Source: Mobula hypostoma (taxonomy: Eukaryota). Taken from it: a DNA stretch of 64,000 bases. The stretch lies in the NCBI RefSeq assembly GCF_963921235.1, contig NC_086097.1, positions 61,010,001 to 61,074,000 of the forward strand, read 5' to 3'. The notes below the pieces were generated by a model. It saw only the letters and a list, made by a program, of their open reading frames with translations. It was not told the DNA's origin and searched no databases. Positions within the stretch are counted from its first letter, which is position 1. Every line of letters begins with the position of its first letter. This document shows positions 32,101 to 64,000 of the stretch, in pieces. The position numbers and the translations under genes were made by a program.

Positions 32101-32983
32101 TCTAACATACCTCATGGATATCTTGTGACTGTCTTATGACCGTGATGTAATTGAGTAGATGATGAGCATGATGTAATGGTCTTTTGGAGGTCACCTGATG
32201 CAATTTTCCCACCGATGTGAGGTCACGTGATGACATGTTCACCACGGGTATAAAAGGAGACCCCTGGGGTGACACAGTTAGTTTTCCAGTTAGAACGTCA
32301 GCCAGATACTCCGCTCCGCTGAGTATTTGCCTTATAATGTATTTTTGATTTAAAATGAAGTTTTACGTTCTGTTGTAATGTACAAAAGTATTGGGCCGGC
32401 AGTTTAACCAATCACTGCCAGGTTTGTTGATGTAACTTTCCAGTAGTATTGGAGAGTGAAGACAGGAACCTGAAGGAGTCGTTCGGCAGTTTTGTATAGT
32501 ATCGACTATTATTGAATTTGTTCAAGAAATAGTGATCTGCATGAGATAGCCTCTGCTAAAAGCAGCAGAAAAGGTTGTGCTGTCTCTAGTATCCAGAGGG
32601 AACGGTCAGTGCCTTTAAACCATTTTATTTCTGTCGTCGTGAGTTCTGTGGACAAGGCAGGATCTGGCTGGGATCGGCAGTGACGTCGCGTCTTCGATGA
32701 ATTTTTTACTCCAGTTAAGTCTCTCTTAATTGACTGCATAAATCTCTTGGACTTTTGAATTTACCATTCTAAGAACTGTTTTTGAATTTACCCCTTTAAG
32801 AACTGTTTTCGCATTTATCACTTTAAGAACTAGTACAGACTGGCCACATAAATGGCCACATAGCAGTTTACTTCTGGTTAAGATTTTTGTTTTTTTAAAA
32901 ATATTCAGCAGAGTTTAATAAATGTTTGATTGTTTTTATAAAACCTGACTCGATTGATATTCATTGTTGCCGATCATGCGACA
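32101..32983 (+). repeat. 5' LTR
   Basis: Direct repeat of 37869-38767, with TATA tataaaa at 32249, aataaa near 32917 and end gcgaca. Confidence 0.92.
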
Positions 32984-32989
32984 TAAATT

Positions 32990-33007
32990 TGGGGGCTTGT
33001 CCAGATA
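32990..33007 (+). promoter_or_regulatory. Primer-binding site, tRNA-Pro-like
   Basis: tgggggcttgtccagat versus the canonical Pro PBS TGGGGGCTCGTCCGGGAT, just after the 5' LTR. Confidence 0.75.
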
Positions 33008-33113
33008 TGTTCCAATTTTGAGCTTAAGTGCTTGTTTAAGTATCACTCTGATTTGGAAAAGGGAAATACCCAATTATTTTGTTTGTTTTGTGTGTGAGTG
33101 GTATTCAGCAGCA

Positions 33114-34577
33114 ATGAATGTTGACAGCTTTATGGAAACACCAGACCCGGAGTTTTTAGTGACAACAAGAAAGGGTGTTGTATACGAGATTGCGAGAAGG
33201 TTGGATCTTAAAGGAATTACGAAGGTTACAACAAAGCCCATACTTCAGAGAAAAATCACTGAGAATTATATGAGTTTGGGAAAGTTTGATGAAGAAGTGT
33301 TAGATAGGTCTCCAATGAGTAATCTGGAAATGCAGTTACATCTTGAACAAATAAAGTTAAAGCAATTAGAAGCTGATTTGGAAAGAAGTCTGTTAGAAGC
33401 TGAAAATAAACAGAAGGAATTTGAGGCTAAAGAAGCCCATAGGAAAAGGGAATTTGAAGAAAGAGAAGCAAATAAAAAGAGGGAATTTGAGCTAGAGATG
33501 GAGAAATTGAAGTCCGAGAATCAGTCCTCTGGTTCTAGGAAACAGTTTGTAGCTGGTCGTGAGGTTATTTTGGCTCCTCCATTTAGTGAAGCAGAAGTGG
33601 ACAAATATTTCCAACATTTCAAAACTATTGCTCTGAGTTTAAAGTGGCCGAAAGAGCAATGGTCAGTGATGTTACAAAGTGTAATAAAAGGGAAAGCACA
33701 GCAAGTTTATACAGCTTTAAATGCTGAGCAAGCACTGGATTATGATATTGTCAAACAGCATATACTGAAGGCGTATGAGTTGGTTCCGGAAGCGTATAGA
33801 GAAAGATTCAGAAATTTGAAGAATTCTGTGGAAGAAACTTACGTGGAATTTGCCTACAAGAAGTCTGTGTGTTTTGAGAGATGGGTTTCCTCTAAAAATG
33901 TGAATGGGGAGTATAATAAATTAAAAGAGTTGATTTTGCTGGAGGAATTTAAATGGAGCATTCCTGTTGAAGTAAGGACAAATGAAAAGGACACTGCTAT
34001 ATTGCAGGAGACTGCTAAATTAGCTGATGAGTATGCTTTAATTCATAAGAATAAATTTTCTCCAGGTAGGACTTTTAAAAGGAAAAGTAGCACAGAGAGT
34101 CAAAATTAAATTAAATCTGAAGTTAGTGAGAAAGGTAAGGATGAAGGGAGACATGTGGAGGAAAGACATTTTGGTCTTATTTGTAATTATTGTAAGAAAC
34201 CTGGACATGTAGTAGCTAACTGTTTTCGATTGAAAAAGAAAGAGAAGGAAGCAGTCCCAGATGCCTGTGTGCAGCATATTGACACACCTGTAAATCCACA
34301 GAGTCTGATAAATACCAATGAAGCTTTGCCAGAGTCAGACCAAGTTAAGAGTGGATATGAACATTTTATAACCAAGGGATTTGTATCCTTGAAAGAGGGA
34401 TCCATTCCAGTACCGATAGAAATACTTAGAGATACTGGAGCTTCTCAATCACTAATGTTAGACAGTGTTCTAAAGTTTAGTGATGAGTCTAACATTGGTG
34501 AGGTAAACTATATAAGAGGAGTTGGGAGTGCCCTTATGCCGGTACATTTACATAGAGTAAATTTAAGGTCAGGGTAA
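33114..34577 (+). pseudogene. gag: gag-protease pseudogene (coiled coil, SCAN-like capsid region, CCHC knuckle, aspartic protease)
   Basis: ATG at 33114. PPFSE..VDKYFQHF and ELVPEAYRERFR..LILLEEFK..AKLADEYA, then a frameshift/stop at ~34109, CNYCKKPGHVVANC and ILRDTGASQSL. Confidence 0.88.
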
Positions 34578-34619
34578 GTTGCAGGGCCTGTTGAAGTAGG
34601 ACTACAACCCAGTTTATCT

Positions 34620-37600
34620 GTGAATGATGTTTCTCTATTGTTAGGGAATGATTTAGCAAACGGACAAGTTTTTCCTGATGTACATTTGACAATAAAGCCT
34701 ATTTCTGAGGAACCACAGAGGGATTCTAACACAGATTCTTCTTGTGTTGTAAACCAAGCTATGGCTAAAAAGACTGATGTACAGGATGAGGTTGTTACCC
34801 ATGACTGTTCAACTCAAGATACAAATTTTGAGGATGTGTCAGAAACTTTCTTACCTTCGTTATTTGATGAAGATTATTGTAATAAGTCTGACCATGAAGA
34901 TTTATCTTTATCTCAGAAGGAGATGATGGCAGAGCAGGGTAGAGATCCAGAGAGAGTTAAGTTAAAGGAACAAGCTCTTCCAGATAGTGAAATTGAGAAA
35001 GTGGCAGTAGGATATTAATTTGAAAAGAACTATTAATGAGGAAGTAGAGATCTCCTACCATTCCTGCAAGTAAGGAATGGGAAATTAATCACCGGGTAGT
35101 AGTTCCTAAAATTTATCGAAGTGAGATTTTAACTACGGCTCATAGTATACCTTTGGGTGGCCATCTAGGTGTAAAGAAAACTATGAACAAGGTTTTTAAA
35201 CATTTTTACTGGCCCAGCTTAAGAAAAGACGTTGCGACATTTTGCAGAACGTGTCATACGTGTCAAATTGTGGGTAAACCTAATCAAGTTACTGCAACCC
35301 ATTCCAGCATTTGGTGAACCATTCTCAAAGATCATTGTAGACTATGTAGGCCCATTGCCAAAAACTAAAACTGGACATCAATATTTGTTGACCATTATGT
35401 ACACAGCATCTAGATTTCCAGAGGCAACACCTCTTAGGAATATAACAGCCAAAACTGTGATAAAGGCTCTTATAAAACTCTTTACTTATTTTGGATTGCC
35501 TAAGGAAATACAATCTGATAAAGGTAGTAATTTTATGTCTGGATTGTTTCAGCAGGTAGTTTATAAACTGGGAGCAAAACAGATTACCTCATCTGTATAT
35601 CATCCAGAATCACAAGGAGCCTTGGAGAGATTCCATTCTACCCTCAAAATCTATGATTGTGTGGAAAATGAAAAGGACTGGGATGAAGGCGTACATTTAC
35701 CACTTTTTGCAGTAAAGGAGGCAGTGCAGGAATCATTAGGTTTTAGTCCTTTTGAACTTGTGTTTGGGCATAGAGTTTGAGGACCTTTGGTCTTGTTGAA
35801 AGAACAGTGGATTAATAAATAGGTACACACTAATTTGCTGGATTATGTTTTGAAATTTAAAGAAAGATTATATAAAGCTTGTAGCTTGACCAAGGAAAAT
35901 TTAAAATTGACTCAGGAGAAGATGAAAACTTGGTATGATAAGGAAGCTAAGATGAGGTCATTTAAGTCTGAAGATAAGGTGTTGGTTCTTTTCCCGGTCC
36001 AAACGAACCCATTACAAGCTGAATTTCATGGTCCTTATGAGATTAAATATAAAGTAAATGCTGTGGATTACGTGATTAAAACCCCAGATCAAAGAAAGGC
36101 AACATAGCTGTGTCATATAAATACAAGCGTGTGTATGATAAAACTGTATTATGAGAAAAAGGCTGCTACTATGACTGTTGTTTTCAATAATGAGTCTGAT
36201 CATAAAAAATTGATGGATGATTCATCTGAAACTCATTTTAAACCCAACATTATTTCAGCCAGATTACCAAACTCAGCAATTCTGGAAAATATGAATGAGA
36301 AATTATCTCATTTACAGCCAGAGCAGAGAGAGCAGATGAAACAATTATTTTTAAATATAGAGATTTATTTCCCGACATCCCTAAAAGAACCACCATGGCT
36401 TCTCATGATGTAGATGTTGGAGAGGCAAAGCCCATAAAACAACATCCATATTGGATGAATACGGAAAAATGTAAACTTGCTGAACAAGAAATTAAGTATA
36501 TATTAGAGAATAATATTATTAGACCTTCAAATTTGAATTGAGGATCATCGTGTGTTATGGTGCCTAAGCCAGACAATAGTATTAGGTTTTGTACAGATTA
36601 CAGGAAGGTGAATGCTGTGACAAAAACTGATGCATATCCAATCCCTAGGGTAGATAAATGTGTAGATAAAGTTGGACAAGCCAAGCTCCTTACAAAGATT
36701 GATTTGTTAAAAGGTTATTGGTGTGTTCCATTGATGGATAGAGGTAGAGAAATTTTTGCATTTGTAACCCCATCTGGGTTATATGAATATAATGTTATTC
36801 CATTTGGAATGAAGAATGCACCAGGTACTTTCCAAAGGATGATTAATTGTGTGATTCATGGGTTAAAAGATACAGATCCCTATATTGATGATTTAGTTAC
36901 AGGAAATAATATGTGGAATGTACATATTACTGCAGTGGACATACTATTTGAAAGAGTTTCAAAAGCTAACTTAACTATTAACTTAGCTAAAAGTGAATTT
37001 GGCCATGCCACAGTGACCTCCCTTGGTTATGTTGTGGGTCAAGGAAAATTAGCTCCTGTTCAGGCAATATTAGAAGTACACACTCCAACTGGTAAGAAAT
37101 CTCTCAGAAGATTCTTGGGTATGGTAGGATATTACAGAAAATTTTGTAAGAATTTTGCAAACATTGCTCTTCCATTAACTAACCTCTTGAAGAAAAGTAA
37201 AAAGTTTGTTTGGACAGAGTGTTGTCAGGAAGCATTTGATAAATTGAAAACTATACTATGTAGTCAACCTGTGCTCAAATTTCCTGACTTTGAAAAGTCA
37301 TTTTCATTAGCTGTAGATGCTAGTGATGAAGCTACAGGAGCAGTGTTAGTTCAAAGAGATGAGCGTGACGAAGTTGATCGTCCGGTAGCTTACTCTTCTA
37401 AGAAATTTAATGTCCATCAAAGAAATTATTCAACAATAGAAAAGGAATTATTATCTCTTGTTTTGGCTTTACAACATTTTGATGTGTATGTTGGTACTAC
37501 TCAGAAACCACCGTAGTTTACACCGATCATAATCCGTTAGTGTTTTTGAGTAAGATGAAAAACAAAAATAGAAGATTACTAAATTGGAGTTTAATGTTAC

Positions 37601-37674
37601 AAGAGTATAATATTTTGATCACTCATATTAAAGGTAAAGATAATGTGATCGCTGATTGTCTATCTACATGTTAA
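34620..37674 (+). pseudogene. pol: pol pseudogene: integrase, then reverse transcriptase, then RNase H
   Basis: IN: GHLGVKKT..CHTCQ, IVDYVGPLP, IQSDKGSNF, YHPESQGALERFH. RT: VPKPDNSIRFCTDYRKVN, IDLLKGYW, PFGMKNAP, YIDD. RH: VDASD, YSTIEKELL, DHNPL. Several stops and frameshifts. Confidence 0.92.
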
Positions 37675-37868
37675 ATGTACACTGTAATTTTTTATGTGGA
37701 GTGGTATTTTAACATTTGTAACACTCCTACTGTATATTAGTTTGTAAGGTGTTGTATGATGATACTGTGTATATTGTGTATGTTGTAAATTTATATTTGT
37801 CTTTTTTGTAAATGGTTAATTGTTAAAATTTTGCTCCGAAAAAGTCCAAAAAATTTTTTGGAGGGAGG

Positions 37869-38767
37869 TGTTACATACCTCATGGATATTTTGTGACTGT
37901 CTTATGACCATGATGTAATTGAGTAGCTGATGATCATGATGTAATGGTCTTTGTCTTTTGGAGGTCACCTGATGTAATTTTCCCACCGATGTGAGGTCAC
38001 ATGATGACATGTTCACCACGGGTATAAAAGGAGACCCCTGGGGTGACACAGTTAGTTTTCCAGTTAGAACTTCAGCCAGATACTCTGCTCCGCTGCATAT
38101 TCGCCTTATGACGCAGTTTTGATTTAAAACGGAGCTTTATGTTCTTTTGTAAGGTACAAAAGTGTTGTGCCAGCGGTTTAACCAATCGCTGCCAGGTTTG
38201 TTGATGTATCTTTTTAGTAGTATTGGAGAGTGAAGACGGGAACCTGAAGGAGTTGTTAGGTGGTTTTGGATAGTATCGACTATTATTGTATTCGTTCAAG
38301 AAAGAGTGATCTGCATGAGATAGACTCTGCTATGAGTAGCAGAAAAGGCTGTGTAGTATCTAATATCCAGAGTGAAAGGTCAGTGCATTTAAACCGTTTT
38401 ATTTCCATTGTCGTGAATCCTGCAGACAAGGCAGGTTCTGGCTGGGATCGGCAGTGACGTCGTGACTTCAATGAGTTCTTTACTTCAGGAAAGTCTCTCC
38501 TAATTAACTGTATAAATCTCTTGGACATTCGAATTTACCATTCTAAGAACAGTTTTGGAATTTACCCCTTGAAGAACTGTTTTCGCATTTATCGCTTTAA
38601 GTACTAGTACTGAGTGGCGGTTTGTTAAATGGCCGCATAGCAGTTTCCTTCCGGTTAAGGTTTTCATTTGTTGTTTTCAAATATTGAGCAGAGTTTAATA
38701 AATGTTTGATTGTTTTTATAAAACCTGACTCGACAGATCACGACAGATTGTTGCCGATCACGTGACA
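37869..38767 (+). repeat. 3' LTR
   Basis: TGTTAC...GTGACA, preceded by a polypurine tract. Confidence 0.93.
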
Positions 38768-39375: not shown

Positions 39376-39992
39376 ATAGAAACATAGAAACATAGAAAAT
39401 AGGTGCAGGAGTAGGCCATTCGGCCCTTCGAGCCTGCACCGCCATTTATTATGATCATGGCTGATCATCCAACTCAGAACCCAGCCTTCCCTCCATACCC
39501 CCTGACCCCTGTAGCCACAAGGGCCATATCTAACTTCCTTTTAAACATAGCTAATGAACTGGCCTCAACAGTTTGCTGTGGCAGAGAATTCCACAGATTC
39601 ACCACTCTCTGTGTGAAGAAGTTTTTCCTAACCTCGGTCCTAAAAGGCTTCCCCTCTATCCTCAAACTGTGACCCCTCGTTCTAGACCTCCCCAACATCG
39701 GGAACAATCTTCCCGCATCTAGCCTGTCCAATCCCTTTAGGATCTTATACGTTTCAATCAGATCCACCCTCAATCTTCTAAATTCCAACGAGTACAAGCC
39801 CAGTTCATCCAGTCTTTCTTCATATGAAAGACCTGCCATCCCAGGAATCAATCTGGTGAACCTTCTTTGTACTCCCTCTATGGCAAAGATGTCTTTCCTC
39901 AGATTAGGGGACCAAAACTGCACACAATACTCCAGGTGTGGTCTCACCAAGGCCTTGTACAACTGCAGTAGTACCTCCCTGCTCCTGTACTC
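39376..39992 (-). mobile_element. Young 5'-truncated CR1 LINE with open RT C-terminus
   Basis: Uninterrupted LYKALVRPHLEYCVQFWSP...RTRGHSL...FFTQRVVNLWNSLP, with a (catagaaa)3 tail at 39376. Confidence 0.92.
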
Positions 39993-40417
39993 GACAGGTA
40001 GTAAGAAAGGCAATTGCAATGTAAGCATTCATTTCGAGAGAACTAAATATAACAGCAAGGATGTAAAGCTCAGGCTTTATAAGGCATTAGCTAGACCACA
40101 CTTGGAGTATCGTGAGCAGTTTTAGGCCCCTTGTCTAAAAAGGATGTGCTGGCATTGGAGAGGGTCTAGAGCAGGTTCACAAGACTGATTCTAAGAATGA
40201 AAGAGTTAACATTCATTGTGAAGAACATTTGATGGTTCTGTGCCTGTACTTGCTGGAGTTTAGAAGGATGAGAGACAATCTCATGGAAACCTATTGAATT
40301 TTGAAAGGTCTAAATAGAGAGGATGTGGAGAGGAAATAGTGGGGATGTCTAAAACCAGATGGCACAGCCTCAGAACAGAGGAATGTCCATTTTGAACAGA
40401 GATAAGGAGGAATTTCC

Positions 40418-51735: not shown

Positions 51736-52109
51736 CCTTCTTATGGTCTTATATAAGATATATATATTATGGTCTTATGAACTTCTCTAACTTCCGTTAA
51801 TGCCCCACCTCCCCTTCGTACCCCATCCATTATTTACTTATTTATCATTATTATATATATTTTTTTCTCTCTCCTTTTTCTCTCTCTGTCCCTCTCACTA
51901 TACTCCTTGCCCATCCTCTGGGCTTCCCCCCTCCCCCTTTCTTTCTCCCTAGGCCTCCCATCCCATGATCCTCTCATATCCCTTTTGCCAATCACCTGTC
52001 CAGCTCTTGGCTCCATCCCTCCCCCTCCTGTCTTCTCCTATCATTTTGGATCTCCCCCTCCCCCTCCCACTTTCAAATCTCTTACTATCTCTTCTTTCAG
52101 TTAGTCCTG

Positions 52110-52964
52110 TGTTACGAGAATACACATAAAATTAAGATGTTTGCTGGCCTGGGCTAGCATCAGTGGCATCAGCAGTTGGTCTGCCACCTGCCCTCAGGGG
52201 AAGGAGAGATAAGGAACAATGGAGCAGCGTCTGGAGATGTGTAATGAAGGGATGTGGGAGAGAGAGCTGTCTGGAGCGGCTCCCCCCTTTGAACCCTGAA
52301 CTGTTTGAAGTGATGGACAGGCGATACCCCAGCAGGGGGATAAAAAGGGACAGGTTCGCTAAGACAGACACACACGCCACCCGAGGTAACGAGACCCTGG
52401 AAGTGGTGCGCCTCTCACGAGTGGGTGAGAAGTATCAGACAACGACAAGGGTGGAAAGGTACGATCAGCGGGAACCCGGTGTGTGTCCGCCCTTGCCTGG
52501 GTGCCGGGTTCACTGCAGAGGATCGACCGCATCTGGAGGAGGGGTCACAGTCGGTGACCTCAGGTGACATCACCAAGGACCCGCCCAAAAGTTGCTCGTG
52601 AGCATCTCGTCGGTCTGTGAGTGAAGCTGTGCTGAATGATGAGTTGTTCCTGTTCTCTCTGTCTCTCTCCCCCCACGTTGTCCCTCGCCATGGCAACGAT
52701 TACTGCGAACTGAACTGGACTGAACTTTGAGTCATTTTGAAATTTGGTCATTTACCCCCTAGACAACGATAGAGCTTGATTGATGCTGTTATCTTAATTC
52801 TGTGCACATGTGTGGTTATCATTGTTGAATTGTTGCATTTATTATCCTTTCGATTACTGTGTTGCTTGTTTCTTTAATAAAACTTTCTTAGTTCTAGTAC
52901 TCCAGACTCCAACTGAGTGTTCCATTTCTGCTGGTTTGGCAACCCAGTTACGGGGTACATAACA
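52110..52964 (+). repeat. 5' LTR
   Basis: TGTTAC...ATAACA, with aataaa at ~52876. Confidence 0.96.
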
Positions 52965-52968
52965 TAAG

Positions 52969-52987
52969 TGGGGTTCTCGTCCGCGAT
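52969..52987 (+). promoter_or_regulatory. Primer-binding site, variant tRNA-Pro type
   Basis: tggggttctcgtccgcgat versus TGGGGGCTCGTCCGGGAT, 4 nt after the LTR. Confidence 0.7.
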
Positions 52988-53063
52988 TTTGAACGCTAAA
53001 TTTGGGACGGAGTAAATTGATTGGGTTAAAATTCCCGAAAGAAAGAAAAGACAAACAGCAGAA

Positions 53064-55970
53064 ATGGAGGTTGAGGAATTTATAAAGGCGCCGACCTTGG
53101 AGGCATTAGAGGATGCCAGGAAATCGGAATTGATAGCTGTGGCCAAACGGGTGAATCTTGCTAAGGTGAAGTCGACAATGAGGAGAGAGGAGATACACAG
53201 AGCTATTATAGAGCACTATGTATCTAAAGGTGTGTTTCCCCAAGGTGAGCTGGGGGAGGTGTCTATTGAAAAACCTGCTGGAGACGCTGTACAGGTACAG
53301 CTTGAAAAACTGAGACTCGAGCACGAGTTCCGGGTACGGCAGTTAGAACACGAAGAGAAGCAGTTAGAAAGGCAGGAGAGAGAGTTAGAAAGGCGGGAGA
53401 GAGAGAAAAAGTTAGAAAGGCGGGAGAAAGAGAAAGAGGTAGAAAGGCAAGAGAGAGAAAGACAGTTGGAGAGAGAAGAGAGAGAGAGGGACAGACAGTT
53501 GGAGAGAGAGGGGAAACAGAGGGAAAGGGAATTTGAGCTGGAGAAGTTAAAGATAAGGGCCGAGCAGGGGCTCGTGCCGAACCAAGGTGGAGGGTTCCGG
53601 GCGACCCAGGAGGTTAGGCTGGTTCCCCCATTTGACGATACCGATGTGGATCGGTACTTTCTCCATTTCGAAAAAGTGGCTATAAGTCAGGACTGGCCGA
53701 GGGAGAAGTGGGTTGTTTTACTTCAGAGTGTACTGAAAGGGAGGGCCCAAGAAGCTTACTCAGCTTTGTCCGCGGAAGATGCCCAGAGATATGAGGTGGT
53801 GAAAGAGGCCATCCTCAGGATTTATGAGTTGGTCCCGGAGGCATACCGGCAGAGGTTCCGGAATGCGAGGAAGCAGTGGGACCGCACGTATTTGGAGTTT
53901 GCTCGTGAGATGCAAACATATTGTGAGCGTTGGTGCGCCTCGAAAGGGGTAGAGGGGGATTATGACAGACTGCTGCAGCTGATTCTGATTGAGCAGTTTA
54001 AAGGTTGTGTCCCTGAGGGTATGAGACCCTACCTCGACGAGAAAGAGGCAGCCACGTTAGCCGCAACTGCTAAGTTAGCGGATGAGTATGCGTTGACGCA
54101 TAAAATGAAGTTTGCCCCGAGTAAAGGCTACCAGAAGGGTAGTCAGGACGGAGGGGAGAGTCCGCCGGAAAAGTCAGAAAGTAAGCCGGGGACTAGTGAA
54201 AAGGATAAGGTAGACCGGGAGCAGTCTGGTAGGAAGTCTCCTGGGGTCGTCTGTTATAATTGTGGGAAAGTCGGACACTTTGCGTCCAGGTGCTTTGCCC
54301 CAAGGAAGGAGACGGGGAAAGGAAAAGCGGAAATTTTGAATGGCTGTATCGAGCTGTTAAGTGAACCGCTAGGGAAGGACAGGTCTGAAAAAGTCCAGGA
54401 AGGGCGCGAGAGGTTTATCTCGGCCGGACTGGTGTCAGTGAAGGAGAGGTTAAAACCAGTTCCAGTGCGGATCTGGAGAGACACGGGAGCGTGTCAGTCA
54501 CTAATACTGAAGAGTGTATTAGAGTTTAGCTCAGAGACCCAGACTGGGGAGGTAGAGGTCAAAGGTGTTGGGGAAGGGACAGAGTCAGTCCCTTTGCACC
54601 AGATACATTTACAGAGCAACCTGGTCTCTGGACTAGTCACGATCGGGGTGAGGTCCGAATTACCGATGAAAGACGTGGAAGTCTTGCTCGGTAATGACAT
54701 CGCCGGAGGAATCGTGTTCCCAGTCGTGAGATTGACGGGTCAGCCTGCTAGCATGGAGGCCCCGCCCCCGATGGTGAATTTGGCTGAAACATTTCTGCCA
54801 ACCTTGTATGAGACAGGGTGTAGTGAGATAAGAGGTAGTGAGGGAGCTGGGACAGACGTAGCAGTAGCCAGGAAAGAATTTGTGCAGACGCAGGAGCGAG
54901 ACGAGGGGCTGATGGTTTTTGCCGAGACCGCTCTCTCTGACACAGCCTTGACAAGCTATTGTGCGGATGAGGAGGTGCTAAGGAAGAAAGGGAAATCAAG
55001 TACAGCATCCGCAGATGAGGAGTGGGGGGTGGTGCAAAAGAGTTATGGGGATGAGGTTTTTAACATGGCCCACGAGGTACCCCCCGGTGGACATTTTGCG
55101 GTGCTGGAGGAAACAGTTGGTGGAATCATGAAAGAGATTTACCGGCTGCCCAGGGGGAAAAATGTTATTGATCATGACCGACGCGAACTGAGACGGTCAC
55201 CGGCTTTTGATATGCTAACAAACCTAGTCGGTGTTAGCGTGGAAATCAATGAAGCTAGGGGCCCCTTGATAAGAGGAAAAAAACATTTTGAAAAGATTAG
55301 TATGGGATCGATCAGACGGGAGAAGGCTATTGTTTTGGCCAGGTCTACTGATAAGGTCTCTCCCTTAATCCCCGAACAAAGCGAATCTTTAGAAGGAGTA
55401 ATTAAACGACTCGCGCCTATGTGTTTGATTGTCCCGAGGAAATGCAAAGAACTGGGACGTTGGGTGATTGTGGTTACAATAGGGCAGCCAAGTAAACAAC
55501 ACCCATATTTTTCGAGTAATTCAGTGACTAAAGGGCTGATGAACACAGAGGTGTGTATTGGCAATTTAATACGGCTGTCTGAAGCCAGTTTGATAGTGAA
55601 CCTTGAAAAAAATGAATTCGGCCACACGAGGGTCACTTACCTGGGAATTGTGGTGACCCAGGGGCAGCTGGCAGTGATGCAAGCTACAGTGCAGGCTATC
55701 GCTGACCTCCCAACCCCGACAGACAAGAGGGCCCTCAGAAGGCTCTTGGAGATGGTGGGGTACTGCAGGAAGTTTTGCAATAACTCTGCGGTCAATACCC
55801 GTCCCCCTCCTACTAAGCCCTTGCGAGAGAAAATTGAGTCGGAATGGGACGACCCTTGTTGTTGTGGTCCGGGACAAAACCAAATGAGAGGTTACATTGG
55901 TCGCAATTCATCAGTGTTTTTGGCCACTATGGAGTTTGCTGAGTTGGAGCCTGGTCTAAGGGATTATTAA
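53064..55970 (+). CDS. gag: Gag-protease fused to a truncated, catalytically dead Pol remnant (968 aa)
   Basis: Open from ATG to stop. E/R coiled coil, PPFDDTDVDRYFLHFEK, SCAN-like ELVPEAYRQRFR..LILIEQFK..AKLADEYA, CYNCGKVGHFASRC and protease WRDTGACQSL. The C-terminus aligns in pieces to IN-N, the linker (KQHPY) and the RT thumb (LRRLLEMVGYCRKF). Confidence 0.9.
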   Translation: MEVEEFIKAPTLEALEDARKSELIAVAKRVNLAKVKSTMRREEIHRAIIEHYVSKGVFPQGELGEVSIEKPAGDAVQVQLEKLRLEHEFRVRQLEHEEKQLERQERELERREREKKLERREKEKEVERQERERQLEREERERDRQLEREGKQREREFELEKLKIRAEQGLVPNQGGGFRATQEVRLVPPFDDTDVDRYFLHFEKVAISQDWPREKWVVLLQSVLKGRAQEAYSALSAEDAQRYEVVKEAILRIYELVPEAYRQRFRNARKQWDRTYLEFAREMQTYCERWCASKGVEGDYDRLLQLILIEQFKGCVPEGMRPYLDEKEAATLAATAKLADEYALTHKMKFAPSKGYQKGSQDGGESPPEKSESKPGTSEKDKVDREQSGRKSPGVVCYNCGKVGHFASRCFAPRKETGKGKAEILNGCIELLSEPLGKDRSEKVQEGRERFISAGLVSVKERLKPVPVRIWRDTGACQSLILKSVLEFSSETQTGEVEVKGVGEGTESVPLHQIHLQSNLVSGLVTIGVRSELPMKDVEVLLGNDIAGGIVFPVVRLTGQPASMEAPPPMVNLAETFLPTLYETGCSEIRGSEGAGTDVAVARKEFVQTQERDEGLMVFAETALSDTALTSYCADEEVLRKKGKSSTASADEEWGVVQKSYGDEVFNMAHEVPPGGHFAVLEETVGGIMKEIYRLPRGKNVIDHDRRELRRSPAFDMLTNLVGVSVEINEARGPLIRGKKHFEKISMGSIRREKAIVLARSTDKVSPLIPEQSESLEGVIKRLAPMCLIVPRKCKELGRWVIVVTIGQPSKQHPYFSSNSVTKGLMNTEVCIGNLIRLSEASLIVNLEKNEFGHTRVTYLGIVVTQGQLAVMQATVQAIADLPTPTDKRALRRLLEMVGYCRKFCNNSAVNTRPPPTKPLREKIESEWDDPCCCGPGQNQMRGYIGRNSSVFLATMEFAELEPGLRDY

Positions 55971-56130
55971 TAACACGTGTAAAAGGAACAGAAAATGTGA
56001 TGACTGTCTGTCAAGGTGTTGACAGCTTCAAACTCGCTGTGTTAGCCAAATAGCTGATAAAGATGTACATTGTGTATGTATCAGATAATGTAGTCATGTT
56101 TGTAATTTTTACCTCCCGGTAAAAATCCTT

Positions 56131-56142
56131 AAAGGGGGGAAG
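56131..56142 (+). other. Polypurine tract
   Basis: aaaggggggaag immediately before the 3' LTR. Confidence 0.85.
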
Positions 56143-56997
56143 TGTTACGAGAATACACATAAAATTAAGATGTTTGCTGGCCTGGGCTAGCATCAGTGGC
56201 ATCAGCAGTTGGTCTGCCACCTGCCCTCAGGGGAAGGAGAGATAAGGAACAATGGAGCAGCGTCTGGAGATGTGTAATGAAGGGATGTGGGAGAGAGAGC
56301 TGTCTGGAGCGGCTCCCCCCTTTGAACCCTGAACTGTTTGAAGTGATGGACAGGCGATACCCCAGCAGGGGGATAAAAAGGGACAGGTTCGCTAAGACAG
56401 ACACACACGCCACCCGAGGTAACGAGACCCTGGAAGCGGTGCGCCTCTCACGAGTGGGTGAGAAGTATCAGACAACGACAAGGGTGGAAAGGTACGATCA
56501 GCGGGAACCCGGTGTGTGTCCGCCCTTGCCTGGGTGCCGGGTTCACTGCAGAGGATCTACCGCATCTGGAGGAGGGGTCACAGTCGGTGACCTCAGGTGA
56601 CATCACCAAGGACCCGCCCAAAAGTTGCTCGTGAGCATCTCGTCGGTCTGTGAGTGAAGCTGTGCTGAATGATGAGTTGTTCCTGTTCTCTCTGTCTCTC
56701 TCCCCCCACGTTGTCCCTCGCCATGGCAACGATTACTGCGAACTGAACTGGACTGAACTTTAAGTCATTTTGAAATTTGGTCATTTACCCCCTAGACAAC
56801 GATAGAGCTTGATTGATGCTGTTATCTTAATTCTGTGCACATGTGTGGTTATCATTGTTGAATTGTTGCATTTATTATCCTTTCGATTACTGTGTTGCTT
56901 GTTTCTTTAATAAAACTTTCTTAGTTCTAGTACTCCAGACTCCAACTGAGTGATCCATTTCTGCTGGTTTGGCAACCCAGTTACGGGGTACGTAACA
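56143..56997 (+). repeat. 3' LTR
   Basis: Near-identical direct repeat of 52110-52964. Confidence 0.96.
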
Positions 56998-57354
56998 CCT
57001 GACAAAGGGTCTCAGCCCGAAACTTCAACTGTACCTCTTCCTATAGATGCTGCCTGGCCTGCTGCATTCACCAGCAATTTTTATGTGTGTTGTTTGAAAT
57101 TCCAGCATCTGCAGACTTCCTCGTGTTTGAGCACATGGATAAGATTGGTTTTAAGGGGTGTGGTCCAAATGCAAGGAAGTGAAGCCACCTTGGTCAATAT
57201 AGATGGGTTAGGCTGAAGTGCCTGTTTCCATGCTATTTATGACATTATAACTTTAAGGTCATGCGCAGTAGGATTAGATGAACAGACAGGCCCTTTAATC
57301 TTGAAAGAAGGCAATTGAGAATTGATCTACTTGATGTCTTCAAAATTTATGGTT

Positions 57355-63652: not shown

Positions 63653-64000
63653 TGTTACATACCCCGTAACTGGGTTGCCAAACCAGCAGAAATGGATCAC
63701 TCAGTTGGAGTCTGGATTACTGGAACTAAGAAAGTTTTATTAAAGAAACAAACAACACAGTACTCTAATCAAAAGGATAATGAATGCAACAGTTCAGCAA
63801 TGATAAACATACATGTACACAGAATTAAGATAACAGGATCAATCAAGCTCTATCGCTGTCTAGGGGTAAATGACCAGTTTCAAAGTGACGCAAAGTTCAG
63901 TTCAATTTAGTTCAGTTCAGTTCGCAGTAATCGCTGCCGTGGCGATGGACAGTGGGGGGAAGGAGAGAGAGAGCAAAACGAATGAATATTAAAGGCTTCC
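63653..64000 (-). mobile_element. LTR related to the 52110/56143 LTRs (3' end; runs off the window)
   Basis: tgttacataccccgtaactgggttgccaaaccagcagaaatggatcactcagttggagtctgga is the reverse complement of the young LTR 3' end; the left flank is Rex1, not a PBS. Confidence 0.92.

Follow-up and report, generated by a model that had tools for sequence, protein, structure and literature searches.

The window analyzed here, a stretch of 64,000 nucleotides (nt) from Mobula hypostoma (contig NC_086097.1, positions 61,010,001 to 61,074,000 of the forward strand), contains at positions 52110 to 56997 a complete long terminal repeat (LTR) element with two LTRs, a target site duplication (TSD), a primer binding site (PBS)-like stretch, a polypurine tract (PPT), and one open reading frame (ORF). 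This window element is a non-autonomous LTR retrotransposon. Its ORF joins gag and a protease (PR) to a degenerate Pol tail with no catalytic reverse transcriptase (RT) or integrase (IN) domain, many insertions of its family postdate the loss of these domains, and an autonomous partner with matching cis-acting sequences, which would mobilize it in trans, resides in the same genome.

Structure of the element

An initial annotation of this DNA, made from the sequence alone, had described 855-bp LTRs with about five differences, a perfect 4-bp TSD, a PBS, a PPT, and an uninterrupted 968-amino-acid (aa) ORF. The LTRs, TSD, and ORF were confirmed, and PBS-like and PPT stretches lie in the expected places and are shared with the autonomous family described below (Table 1). 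The LTRs align over 856 nt with 99.4% identity, 5 mismatches, and no gaps, the additional matching G ahead of each LTR being a base of the flank on the 5' side and of the PPT on the 3' side. If a rate of 1-2e-9 substitutions per site per year is assumed, which is not one measured in this host, the LTR divergence of 0.58% would correspond to ~1.5 to 3 million years. The PBS-like stretch may be of the tRNA-Pro type, and the 64-kb window contains no tRNA gene.

Run on the 968-aa ORF at E ≤ 1, Pfam recovered only SCAN and zf-CCHC and no rve, RVT_1, or RNase H domain, in line with the proposal that intact IN and RT domains are absent. The PR segment gave no Pfam match and, with a 15-sequence profile, no PDB sequence match. 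An AlphaFold2 model of this segment built on a 15-sequence alignment (mean pLDDT 71.7) had the XMRV PR as its top Foldseek match in PDB (E = 9.4e-4, probability 1.00), followed by HTLV and FIV proteases and DDI1; as modeled, the protease segment has a retropepsin fold. Its DTGA motif is kept in 30 of the 30 copies that were fetched from the genome (see below).

Table 1. Features of the window element, with positions in the window
Feature	Position	Strand	Evidence or remark
Left TSD, CCTG	52106..52109	.	Identical 4 nt again at 56998-57001
5' LTR, 855 bp, TG...CA	52110..52964	+	5 mismatches to the 3' LTR; ~95% identity to autonomous-family LTRs
PBS-like stretch TGGGGTTCTCGTCCGCGA	52969..52986	+	Begins 4 nt past the 5' LTR; one base off autonomous copy L044
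Leader, PBS to ATG (presumed packaging region)	52987..53063	+	Within a 92.5% blastn match to an autonomous copy
Single ORF, 968 aa, gag-PR-degenerate Pol	53064..55970	+	No internal stop; intact in 18/30 fetched copies
Glu/Arg-rich coiled-coil-like gag repeat, aa 96-169, length hypervariable	53349..53570	+	Most family indels here; frameshift in 5/12 broken copies
SCAN-type capsid C-terminal domain, aa 258-347	53835..54104	+	Pfam, E = 5.2e-13
5' recombination breakpoint, approximate	54223..54263	.	Helper-like upstream, older lineage downstream; shift in identity and synonymous divergence
CCHC zinc knuckle, aa 396-410	54249..54293	+	Pfam; four Cys/His kept in 30/30 copies
Aspartic protease, aa 440-568; DTGA at 54480-54491	54381..54767	+	AlphaFold2/Foldseek fold match, DTGA, omega
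PR-IN spacer, aa 569-629	54768..54950	+	In-frame deletions of 45 and 21 nt versus other subfamilies
IN N-terminal remnant, aa 630-707; retains both His, lacks CxxC	54951..55184	+	49% aa identity to helper aa 639-722
IN-RT linker remnant, aa 716-815, ending KQHPY	55209..55508	+	49% identity to helper aa 1027-1125
RT palm-end/thumb remnant, aa 819-932; YIDD changed to CIGN; 18-aa deletion	55518..55859	+	57% identity to helper aa 1257-1387
RNase H C-terminal remnant, aa 933-956	55860..55931	+	Alignment to helper
Last 12 codons and stop, outside the ancestral Pol frame after a 14-nt deletion	55932..55970	+	Alignment to autonomous copy
3' recombination breakpoint, approximate	56000..56060	.	Sliding identities
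PPT AAAGGGGGGAAG	56131..56142	+	Abuts the 3' LTR; common to the autonomous family
3' LTR	56143..56997	+	LTR-LTR alignment
Right TSD, CCTG	56998..57001	.	Matches left TSD

An autonomous family and probable helper in the same genome

A genome search with P0008, a stingray relative that retains the integrase, revealed an abundant family, the presumed helper, with open frames of up to 1580 aa. In the four copies fetched (L043 to L046), the ORF measures 1535, 1548, or 1564 aa in three and 1271 aa in the other. Where a locus holds two LTR copies these are 97.0 to 99.65% identical; the fourth locus, L045 (G000:C80:24467500-24477400), is a tandem array of the form LTR-internal-LTR-internal-LTR with a period of 5774 nt and 99.4% identity. 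On the 1535-aa helper ORF, Pfam places, in this order, SCAN, CCHC, Integrase_H2C2 (673-729), rve (750-845), an SH3/C-terminal integrase domain, RVT_1 (1162-1319), and RNase H (1383-1514). Helper LTRs are 94.6 to 95.9% identical to those of the window element, the stretch from LTR to PR is 92.5 to 93.4% identical, and PBS and PPT are the same save for one PBS base. Because LTRs, PBS, and PPT match and the helper ORF is complete, the autonomous partner with matching LTR ends and PBS for which the initial annotation had asked does exist, as a co-resident family with ORFs of 1535 to 1564 aa.

An integrase upstream of RT in pol is the typical and defining order of Gmr1-like Ty3/Gypsy elements. The helper has this order, the Pol remnants of the window element follow it, and the capsid domain is of the SCAN type; by domain order and SCAN gag, helper and window element are, as far as their sequences tell, both Gmr1-like Ty3/Gypsy elements. 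SCAN domain genes are said, in a passage of a previous study, to derive from the gag of Gmr1-like elements (PMC8321522).

The window holds another Gmr1-like element, at 32101-38767, which had been taken as the related full element with which to compare the tail. It is an older element of a different family, decayed and only distantly related, with a SCAN gag ORF, LTRs that are ~91% alike, and an rve fragment upstream of RVT_1/RNase H. We rejected it as the parent because its coding region is itself broken into several ORFs and its identity to the window element is only 37% for gag-PR and 43% for the RT remnant.

The Pol remnant

Alignment to the helper confirmed that the last ~340 aa of the ORF consist of in-frame pieces, collinear with the helper, that derive from IN, the IN-RT linker, RT, and RNase H but lack the catalytic cores, a patchwork that the initial annotation had recognized and that is clearer against the true parent than against the 32101-38767 element. 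ORF residues 1-707 correspond to helper residues 1-722 (78% identity, with gag therein at ~96 to 98%), residues 716-815 to 1027-1125 (49%), residues 819-932 to 1257-1387 (57%, with an 18-aa gap), and residues 936-957 to 1477-1498 (weak identity). Set against the helper Pfam map, IN has lost the zinc-finger half with the CxxC, its rve core, and its C-terminal SH3 domain; RVT_1 is gone as far as the residues immediately ahead of YIDD, and RNase H lacks its N-terminal half. Loss of the CxxC from the IN N terminus and of the entire DDE core had been proposed in the initial annotation. The motifs that had been quoted, AHEVPPGGHF (aa 669-678), KQHPY (aa 811-815), CIGN (aa 831-834), and GYIGRNSSVFLATM (aa 943-956), were all found in place. 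Over the last 339 codons the other two frames contain 24 and 26 stops, and from the end of the ORF to the 3' LTR there are 172 nt in the window element versus 119 nt in the helper.

A family of separate insertions

A search of the genome DNA with the ORF gave 2813 first-look candidates. Scoring was limited to 40 of these, and 30 of the scored matches were fetched. All 40 scored matches span the whole 2907-nt ORF at 94 to 100% identity and share the deletion breakpoints, so that the structure is not that of a single aberrant copy. Each of the 30 fetched copies has two LTRs, with 0 to 17 mismatches per pair and three pairs identical. TSDs of 4 bp that are perfect and differ from copy to copy were found in 26 of the 28 copies that could be evaluated, and the copies are therefore separate insertions.

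The ORF is complete (954 to 997 aa) in 18 of the 30 fetched copies. Among the 12 with a broken ORF, eleven carry one lesion and L023 carries two: the gag repeat is frameshifted in five (L015, L020, L021, L023, and L028), stops occur in six (at codons 608, 676, 808 in three copies, and 905), and the tail is frameshifted near aa 918 in L002 and near aa 937 in L023. The three copies with the codon-808 stop lie at separate loci, two of them with their own perfect TSDs and the third not evaluable. The gag repeat accounts for the range of ORF lengths, which could reflect slippage or errors in assembling low-complexity sequence.

A search of public proteins returned 58 matches, of which the closest with names come from devil rays and stingrays. 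P0011, P0012, and P0014, all stingray proteins, match only gag-PR; the autonomous helper protein is absent from the 58, and the nearest full-length public relatives share 30 to 39% identity and the same Pfam set. ORFs of this retrotransposon group bear host-gene names: P0001 (93% identical) is called metastasis-associated in colon cancer protein 1 isoform X1, and P0012 and P0032 are called axoneme-associated protein mst101(2)-like and mucin-6-like, names that are likely misannotations or chimeric gene models. The stickleback protein P0033 (813 aa) consists of gag-PR followed by the RT connection and RNase H, with rve and RVT_1 absent, and could represent either an independent teleost deletion derivative of a Gmr1-like element or a gene-model artifact.

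Older subfamilies and mosaic origin

Three copies of diverged subfamilies were fetched (L047, L048, and L049). L049, with a complete 959-aa ORF, shares the large junctions and the C terminus of the window element, to which it is 87% identical in gag-PR and 85% identical in the tail; L048 has a complete ORF of 978 aa. L047 is older and decayed. It has the same deletions of the integrase core, RT, and RNase H, but more residues remain at its integrase junction, and in protein its RT remnant is 84% identical to the helper. It also keeps most of the 18-aa RT segment, and since L047 is itself non-autonomous, the 18-aa deletion postdates the loss of autonomy. Motif decay is stepwise, from YIDD in the helper to YIGD in L047 and L049 to CIGN in the window element and, in the zinc finger, from YCRRC (helper) to YCRRE (L049) to HDRRE (window element). 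Gag-PR and the RT remnant of L047 are alike in their distance from the helper (both ~86% identical in nucleotides), which fits a single old split at ~14% divergence, ~10 times the LTR-LTR divergence of the young copies. With many copies and the same junctions in diverged subfamilies, the lineage is long-lived, as had been suspected. The last 80 nt of L049 (G000:C40:48506728-48509908) contain the start of a 3' LTR that is ~80% identical both to the window LTR and to the helper LTR; a different helper may serve, or may once have served, the L049 subfamily.

Divergence from the helper is not uniform along the window element. Synonymous divergence (dS) is 0.016 in the gag N terminus and 0.069 in the gag core and rises to 0.33 in PR and to 0.49 to 0.95 in the segments of the spacer and tail. 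Of the eight 150-nt windows up to ORF nt 1161, seven show an identity of 0.95 to 0.99 and the one in the length-variable repeat shows 0.91; identity is 0.84 to 0.93 past this point and 0.70 to 0.74 beyond nt 1707. The gag of the window element is nearer to the helper than to L049, and its PR is equidistant. At the other end, identity downstream of ~56058 is 0.93 to 0.98 to the helper versus 0.78 to 0.85 to L049, an order that is reversed upstream. Because constraint at the protein level cannot yield such a difference in dS, we infer recombination: the window copy would be a mosaic whose LTRs, leader, gag, and PPT region are helper-like and whose PR and tail come from an older non-autonomous lineage. 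The exchange of ends and gag with the present helper lineage would be recent, and either direction of exchange fits. Template switching between co-packaged RNAs is the usual mechanism of recombination in retroelements. The lineage picture drawn in the initial annotation was thus right in seeing a non-autonomous element but missed its recombinant makeup.

Selection on gag, protease, and tail

The dN/dS ratios (omega) asked for by the initial annotation separate the parts of the ORF clearly. Between the window element and L049, gag plus PR has an omega of 0.20, with 28, 18, and 57 differences at the three codon positions, whereas the tail has an omega of 0.71, with differences spread evenly (46, 51, and 48). 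Against the closer subfamily L048 the tail omega is 1.05. PR gives 0.19 to 0.22, and the lowest value in the tail belongs to the RT remnant (0.50 versus L049). We also counted shared variants, defined as those seen in at least 2 of the 30 copies and so predating insertion, for which the neutral ratio is 2.4. Gag-PR without the repeat has 25 nonsynonymous to 35 synonymous shared variants, and the tail has 38 to 11 (Fisher P = 2e-4 versus gag-PR). Both the omega of ~0.2 and the ratio of shared variants indicate that gag and PR are under purifying selection in the lineages that transpose; together with the retropepsin fold predicted for PR, this upholds the view that the lineage makes its own capsid and protease. 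The amino acid sequence of the tail, by the same measures, is under no detectable constraint and appears free to drift.

Other features of the window

Each LTR of the window element contains a 107-aa ORF (52244-52567 and 56277-56600) with no Pfam match. Among the 29 other fetched copies, 11 have this ORF open in at least one LTR, and it is probably a chance product of GC-rich sequence. On the minus strand at 63653-63973, near the end of the 64,000-nt window, lies a fragment 84 to 87% identical to the 3' third of the element's LTR; this fragment could be what is left of an LTR, solo or truncated, from a related subfamily. A 184-aa ORF on the minus strand at 39474-40028 has no Pfam match and may represent the C-terminal part of a LINE ORF2. 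As for expression, none of the 8 sequencing runs considered is registered as RNA, and the four looked at are short contigs of high depth that may be DNA.

Interpretation and alternatives

Taken as a whole, we consider it probable that the window element is a young insertion of a high-copy, non-autonomous Gmr1-like subfamily that is mosaic and carries a decaying tail, and we are highly confident of the core of this explanation, namely, that the element is non-autonomous, helper dependent, and mosaic, with a functional gag and PR. Its lineage arose from that of a co-resident autonomous gag-PR-IN-RT-RNase H element through several in-frame internal deletions, in which the integrase core, the fingers and palm of RT, and one half of RNase H were lost. 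RNA of the parasite would be packaged with helper RT and IN and be reverse transcribed and integrated by them in trans, and recombination between co-packaged RNAs would keep its cis-acting ends and its Gag compatible with the current helper. The Pol tail is a decaying remnant. The suggestion of the initial annotation that RT and IN are borrowed from a helper gains from the presence of a co-resident autonomous family able to supply both, although the mobilization in trans is itself something that we infer.

A separate question is whether the open frame of the tail was selected. Alignment to the helper indicates that each large deletion leaves the next remnant in its ancestral frame, so that at least four large deletions all keep the frame, as does the later 18-aa deletion, which arose when RT was already dead. 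The subfamily representatives L001, L048, and L049 differ by 11 indels, every one a multiple of three in length. Six lie in the spacer or the IN remnant, and six in-frame events in ~80 codons would predict a far larger number of frameshifts if indels were neutral, yet 18 of the 30 copies are open. In a simulation, 145 neutral substitutions left the tail stop-free with a P of ~0.01. Former coding sequence just past the present stop, in turn, has accumulated indels of 14, 1, 1, 5, 1, and 4 nt relative to the helper, none of which is a multiple of three. On this basis we lean slightly toward the view that staying translatable gave a quantitative, sequence-independent advantage, for which candidate causes include a short 3' untranslated region (UTR) that avoids nonsense-mediated decay and a longer ribosome occupancy or tethering of nascent Gag that favors its own RNA in cis.

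Other evidence weighs against this view. The P value for the stop-free path is biased because the deep comparators L048 and L049 were chosen for their long frames. Stop variants in the tails of the 30 copies are near the neutral expectation (3 observed versus ~4.9, Poisson P = 0.28), and the tail omega is ~1 between closer subfamilies (L001 versus L048). The codon-808 stop is carried by three insertions, so copies with a truncated tail have transposed, and the public proteins P0003 and P0004 stop ~100 aa early. When the genome was queried with gag-PR only, a frame of at least 900 aa was present in just 8 of the 34 non-autonomous copies with a stop-free gag-PR, whereas by our own arithmetic ~0.7 would be expected if lesions were equal in gag-PR and tail; the other 26 end before 900 aa, within the spacer or tail. 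Small gaps that are not multiples of three also separate the tail from the helper, although at 63 to 82% nucleotide identity these may be alignment noise or compensated shifts. Even for gag, the five copies with a frameshifted repeat have young LTRs (1 to 13 mismatches), and an intact gag in cis would therefore not be obligatory unless these frameshifts are low-complexity assembly errors.

An open tail is thus not strictly required for mobilization, and what had been proposed as selection to keep the tail translated stands in part: the in-frame deletions, the indels in multiples of three, and the stop-free path speak for it, but the shared stop and the scarcity of long frames do not. It is quite possible, if to our minds less so than a quantitative advantage, that the open tail is a historical accident, in which deletions happened to fall in frame in a young subfamily, translatability was never selected, and the tail is now being lost. 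The tail omega of 0.7 to 1.05, the near-neutral count of stops, the transposed truncated variants, the many early-ending copies, the choice of comparators, and a last 12 codons that are already off the ancestral frame all fit such an accident; what it explains poorly is the run of frame-keeping deletions and indels within the ORF, the stop-free path of 145 substitutions, and the contrast with the sequence just beyond its stop.

Within the view that translatability was favored, we may speculate further that the tail acts as a sequence-independent "translational tether", with ~340 meaningless codons holding folded Gag-PR on its own RNA and keeping the 3' UTR short, an idea that we put forward as an outside chance. 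If it were true, parasite RNA would gain cis-preference and be shielded from decay when competing with helper RNAs, while recombination with the currently active helper would re-arm the LTRs and gag of the parasite, and the family would exemplify, in nature, selection that acts on ORF length but not on protein sequence.

It is improbable that the Pol fragments are kept for a cis function of the RNA, such as packaging or dimerization, export, an internal PPT, or a length optimum, with the open frame incidental. The same fragments do occur in every subfamily examined, and some 60-nt windows of the RT remnant are 0.92 to 0.97 identical between L001 and L049 where their neighbors are 0.81 to 0.88, but such a function leaves the frame-preserving indels unexplained, and nucleotide diversity among the 30 copies is highest, of the five ORF segments compared, in the tail (2.4%).

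Still less credible, and in our estimation very unlikely, is a tail that serves as a functional protein module, whether a decoy, a dominant-negative Pol partner, or a co-assembly domain, with its sequence selected, as the initial annotation had entertained. Particular Pol pieces are indeed kept in all four representatives (L001, L047, L048, and L049), and the comparatively low omega of the RT remnant could hint at some constraint. Since the tail sequence is otherwise unconstrained, with an even spread of differences over codon positions, omega of 0.71 to 1.05, and shared variants at 38 nonsynonymous to 11 synonymous, any such sequence-dependent role is argued against; the stepwise loss of the RT motif and of the zinc-finger cysteines and the failure of Pfam to recognize any Pol domain point the same way. 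That copies with truncated tails have also transposed makes a decoy protein function in particular unlikely.

A domesticated gag/SCAN host gene, as the host-gene-like names of the closest public proteins (e.g., P0001) could suggest, can be dismissed with near certainty, because the ORF is present in many copies, each flanked by LTRs and a TSD of its own at a separate locus, and the insertions are young and have no host-like exon structure.

Relation to known elements

The window element is not a new kind of element. It resembles the Gmr1-like autonomous helper in its LTRs (~95%), PBS, PPT, SCAN-type capsid and CCHC, single ORF, and IN-before-RT order and differs from it in lacking the IN core, the catalytic part of RT, and half of RNase H, as well as in a dS of 0.3 to 0.9 in PR and the Pol remnants against 0.02 to 0.07 in gag.

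Among better-known systems, the mouse IAP I-delta-1 elements are described, in passages of a previous study, as non-autonomous deletion derivatives with one fused ORF that need full-length relatives in trans, as the most active form, and as encoding a fusion protein reported to act in cis (PMC6466679). As in those passages, internal deletion in the window element leaves one continuous fused ORF. The difference, going by the same passages, is that a single 1.9-kb deletion fuses gag to a recognizable pol in I-delta-1, whereas the window element has a whole gag and PR, several deletions, non-catalytic Pol scraps, and a tail that appears neutral, with any effect in cis being suggested by analogy only. 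The two also belong to different clades, a betaretrovirus-like endogenous retrovirus in the case of IAP and Metaviridae in the case of the window element.

Plant TR-GAG elements are presented, in the portion of a previous study that deals with them, as non-autonomous elements for which transposition has been demonstrated, with a gag ORF retained and an autonomous relative present in the same genome, and the same source gives BARE-1/BARE-2 as an example of a parasite-helper LTR pair (PMC8704663). TR-GAG elements have GAG only and are plant Copia or Gypsy elements, whereas the window element is an animal Gmr1-like element that adds a conserved PR and a 339-aa Pol remnant; since it keeps these, it is not a strict TR-GAG. 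It has in common with BARE-2/BARE-1, LARDs, and TRIMs that it would parasitize the proteins of an autonomous partner through shared cis sequences. BARE-2 reportedly lacks a functional gag, and the window element is its opposite, with gag and PR kept and the Pol enzymes lost. LARDs and TRIMs have no coding capacity, and the window element is neither because its 968-aa ORF encodes gag and PR under purifying selection. Recombination among members of a retrotransposon family is said to occur during bursts.

A full-text literature search found, among the papers listed, no description of a non-autonomous element with gag, PR, and a ghost Pol in animals, which is not proof of absence, and, although no search was made for this group, we know of no non-autonomous LTR family described in cartilaginous fish.

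Biological significance

Since these ORFs bear the names of host genes in public annotation, their family is a possible contaminant of gene sets and of SCAN domain surveys. Beyond this practical point, our findings describe a clean, high-copy helper-parasite LTR pair in cartilaginous fish that is apparently still active, with identical LTRs in 3 of the 30 copies, and a natural example of a parasite of a parasite. The pair opens to comparative genomics the questions of what a non-autonomous element must encode in cis, how such an element tracks its helper, and whether selection can act on translatability. Its main interest lies in the "re-arming" of an old non-autonomous lineage with the ends and gag of its helper and in the possibility that the length of an ORF may be selected without selection on its sequence.

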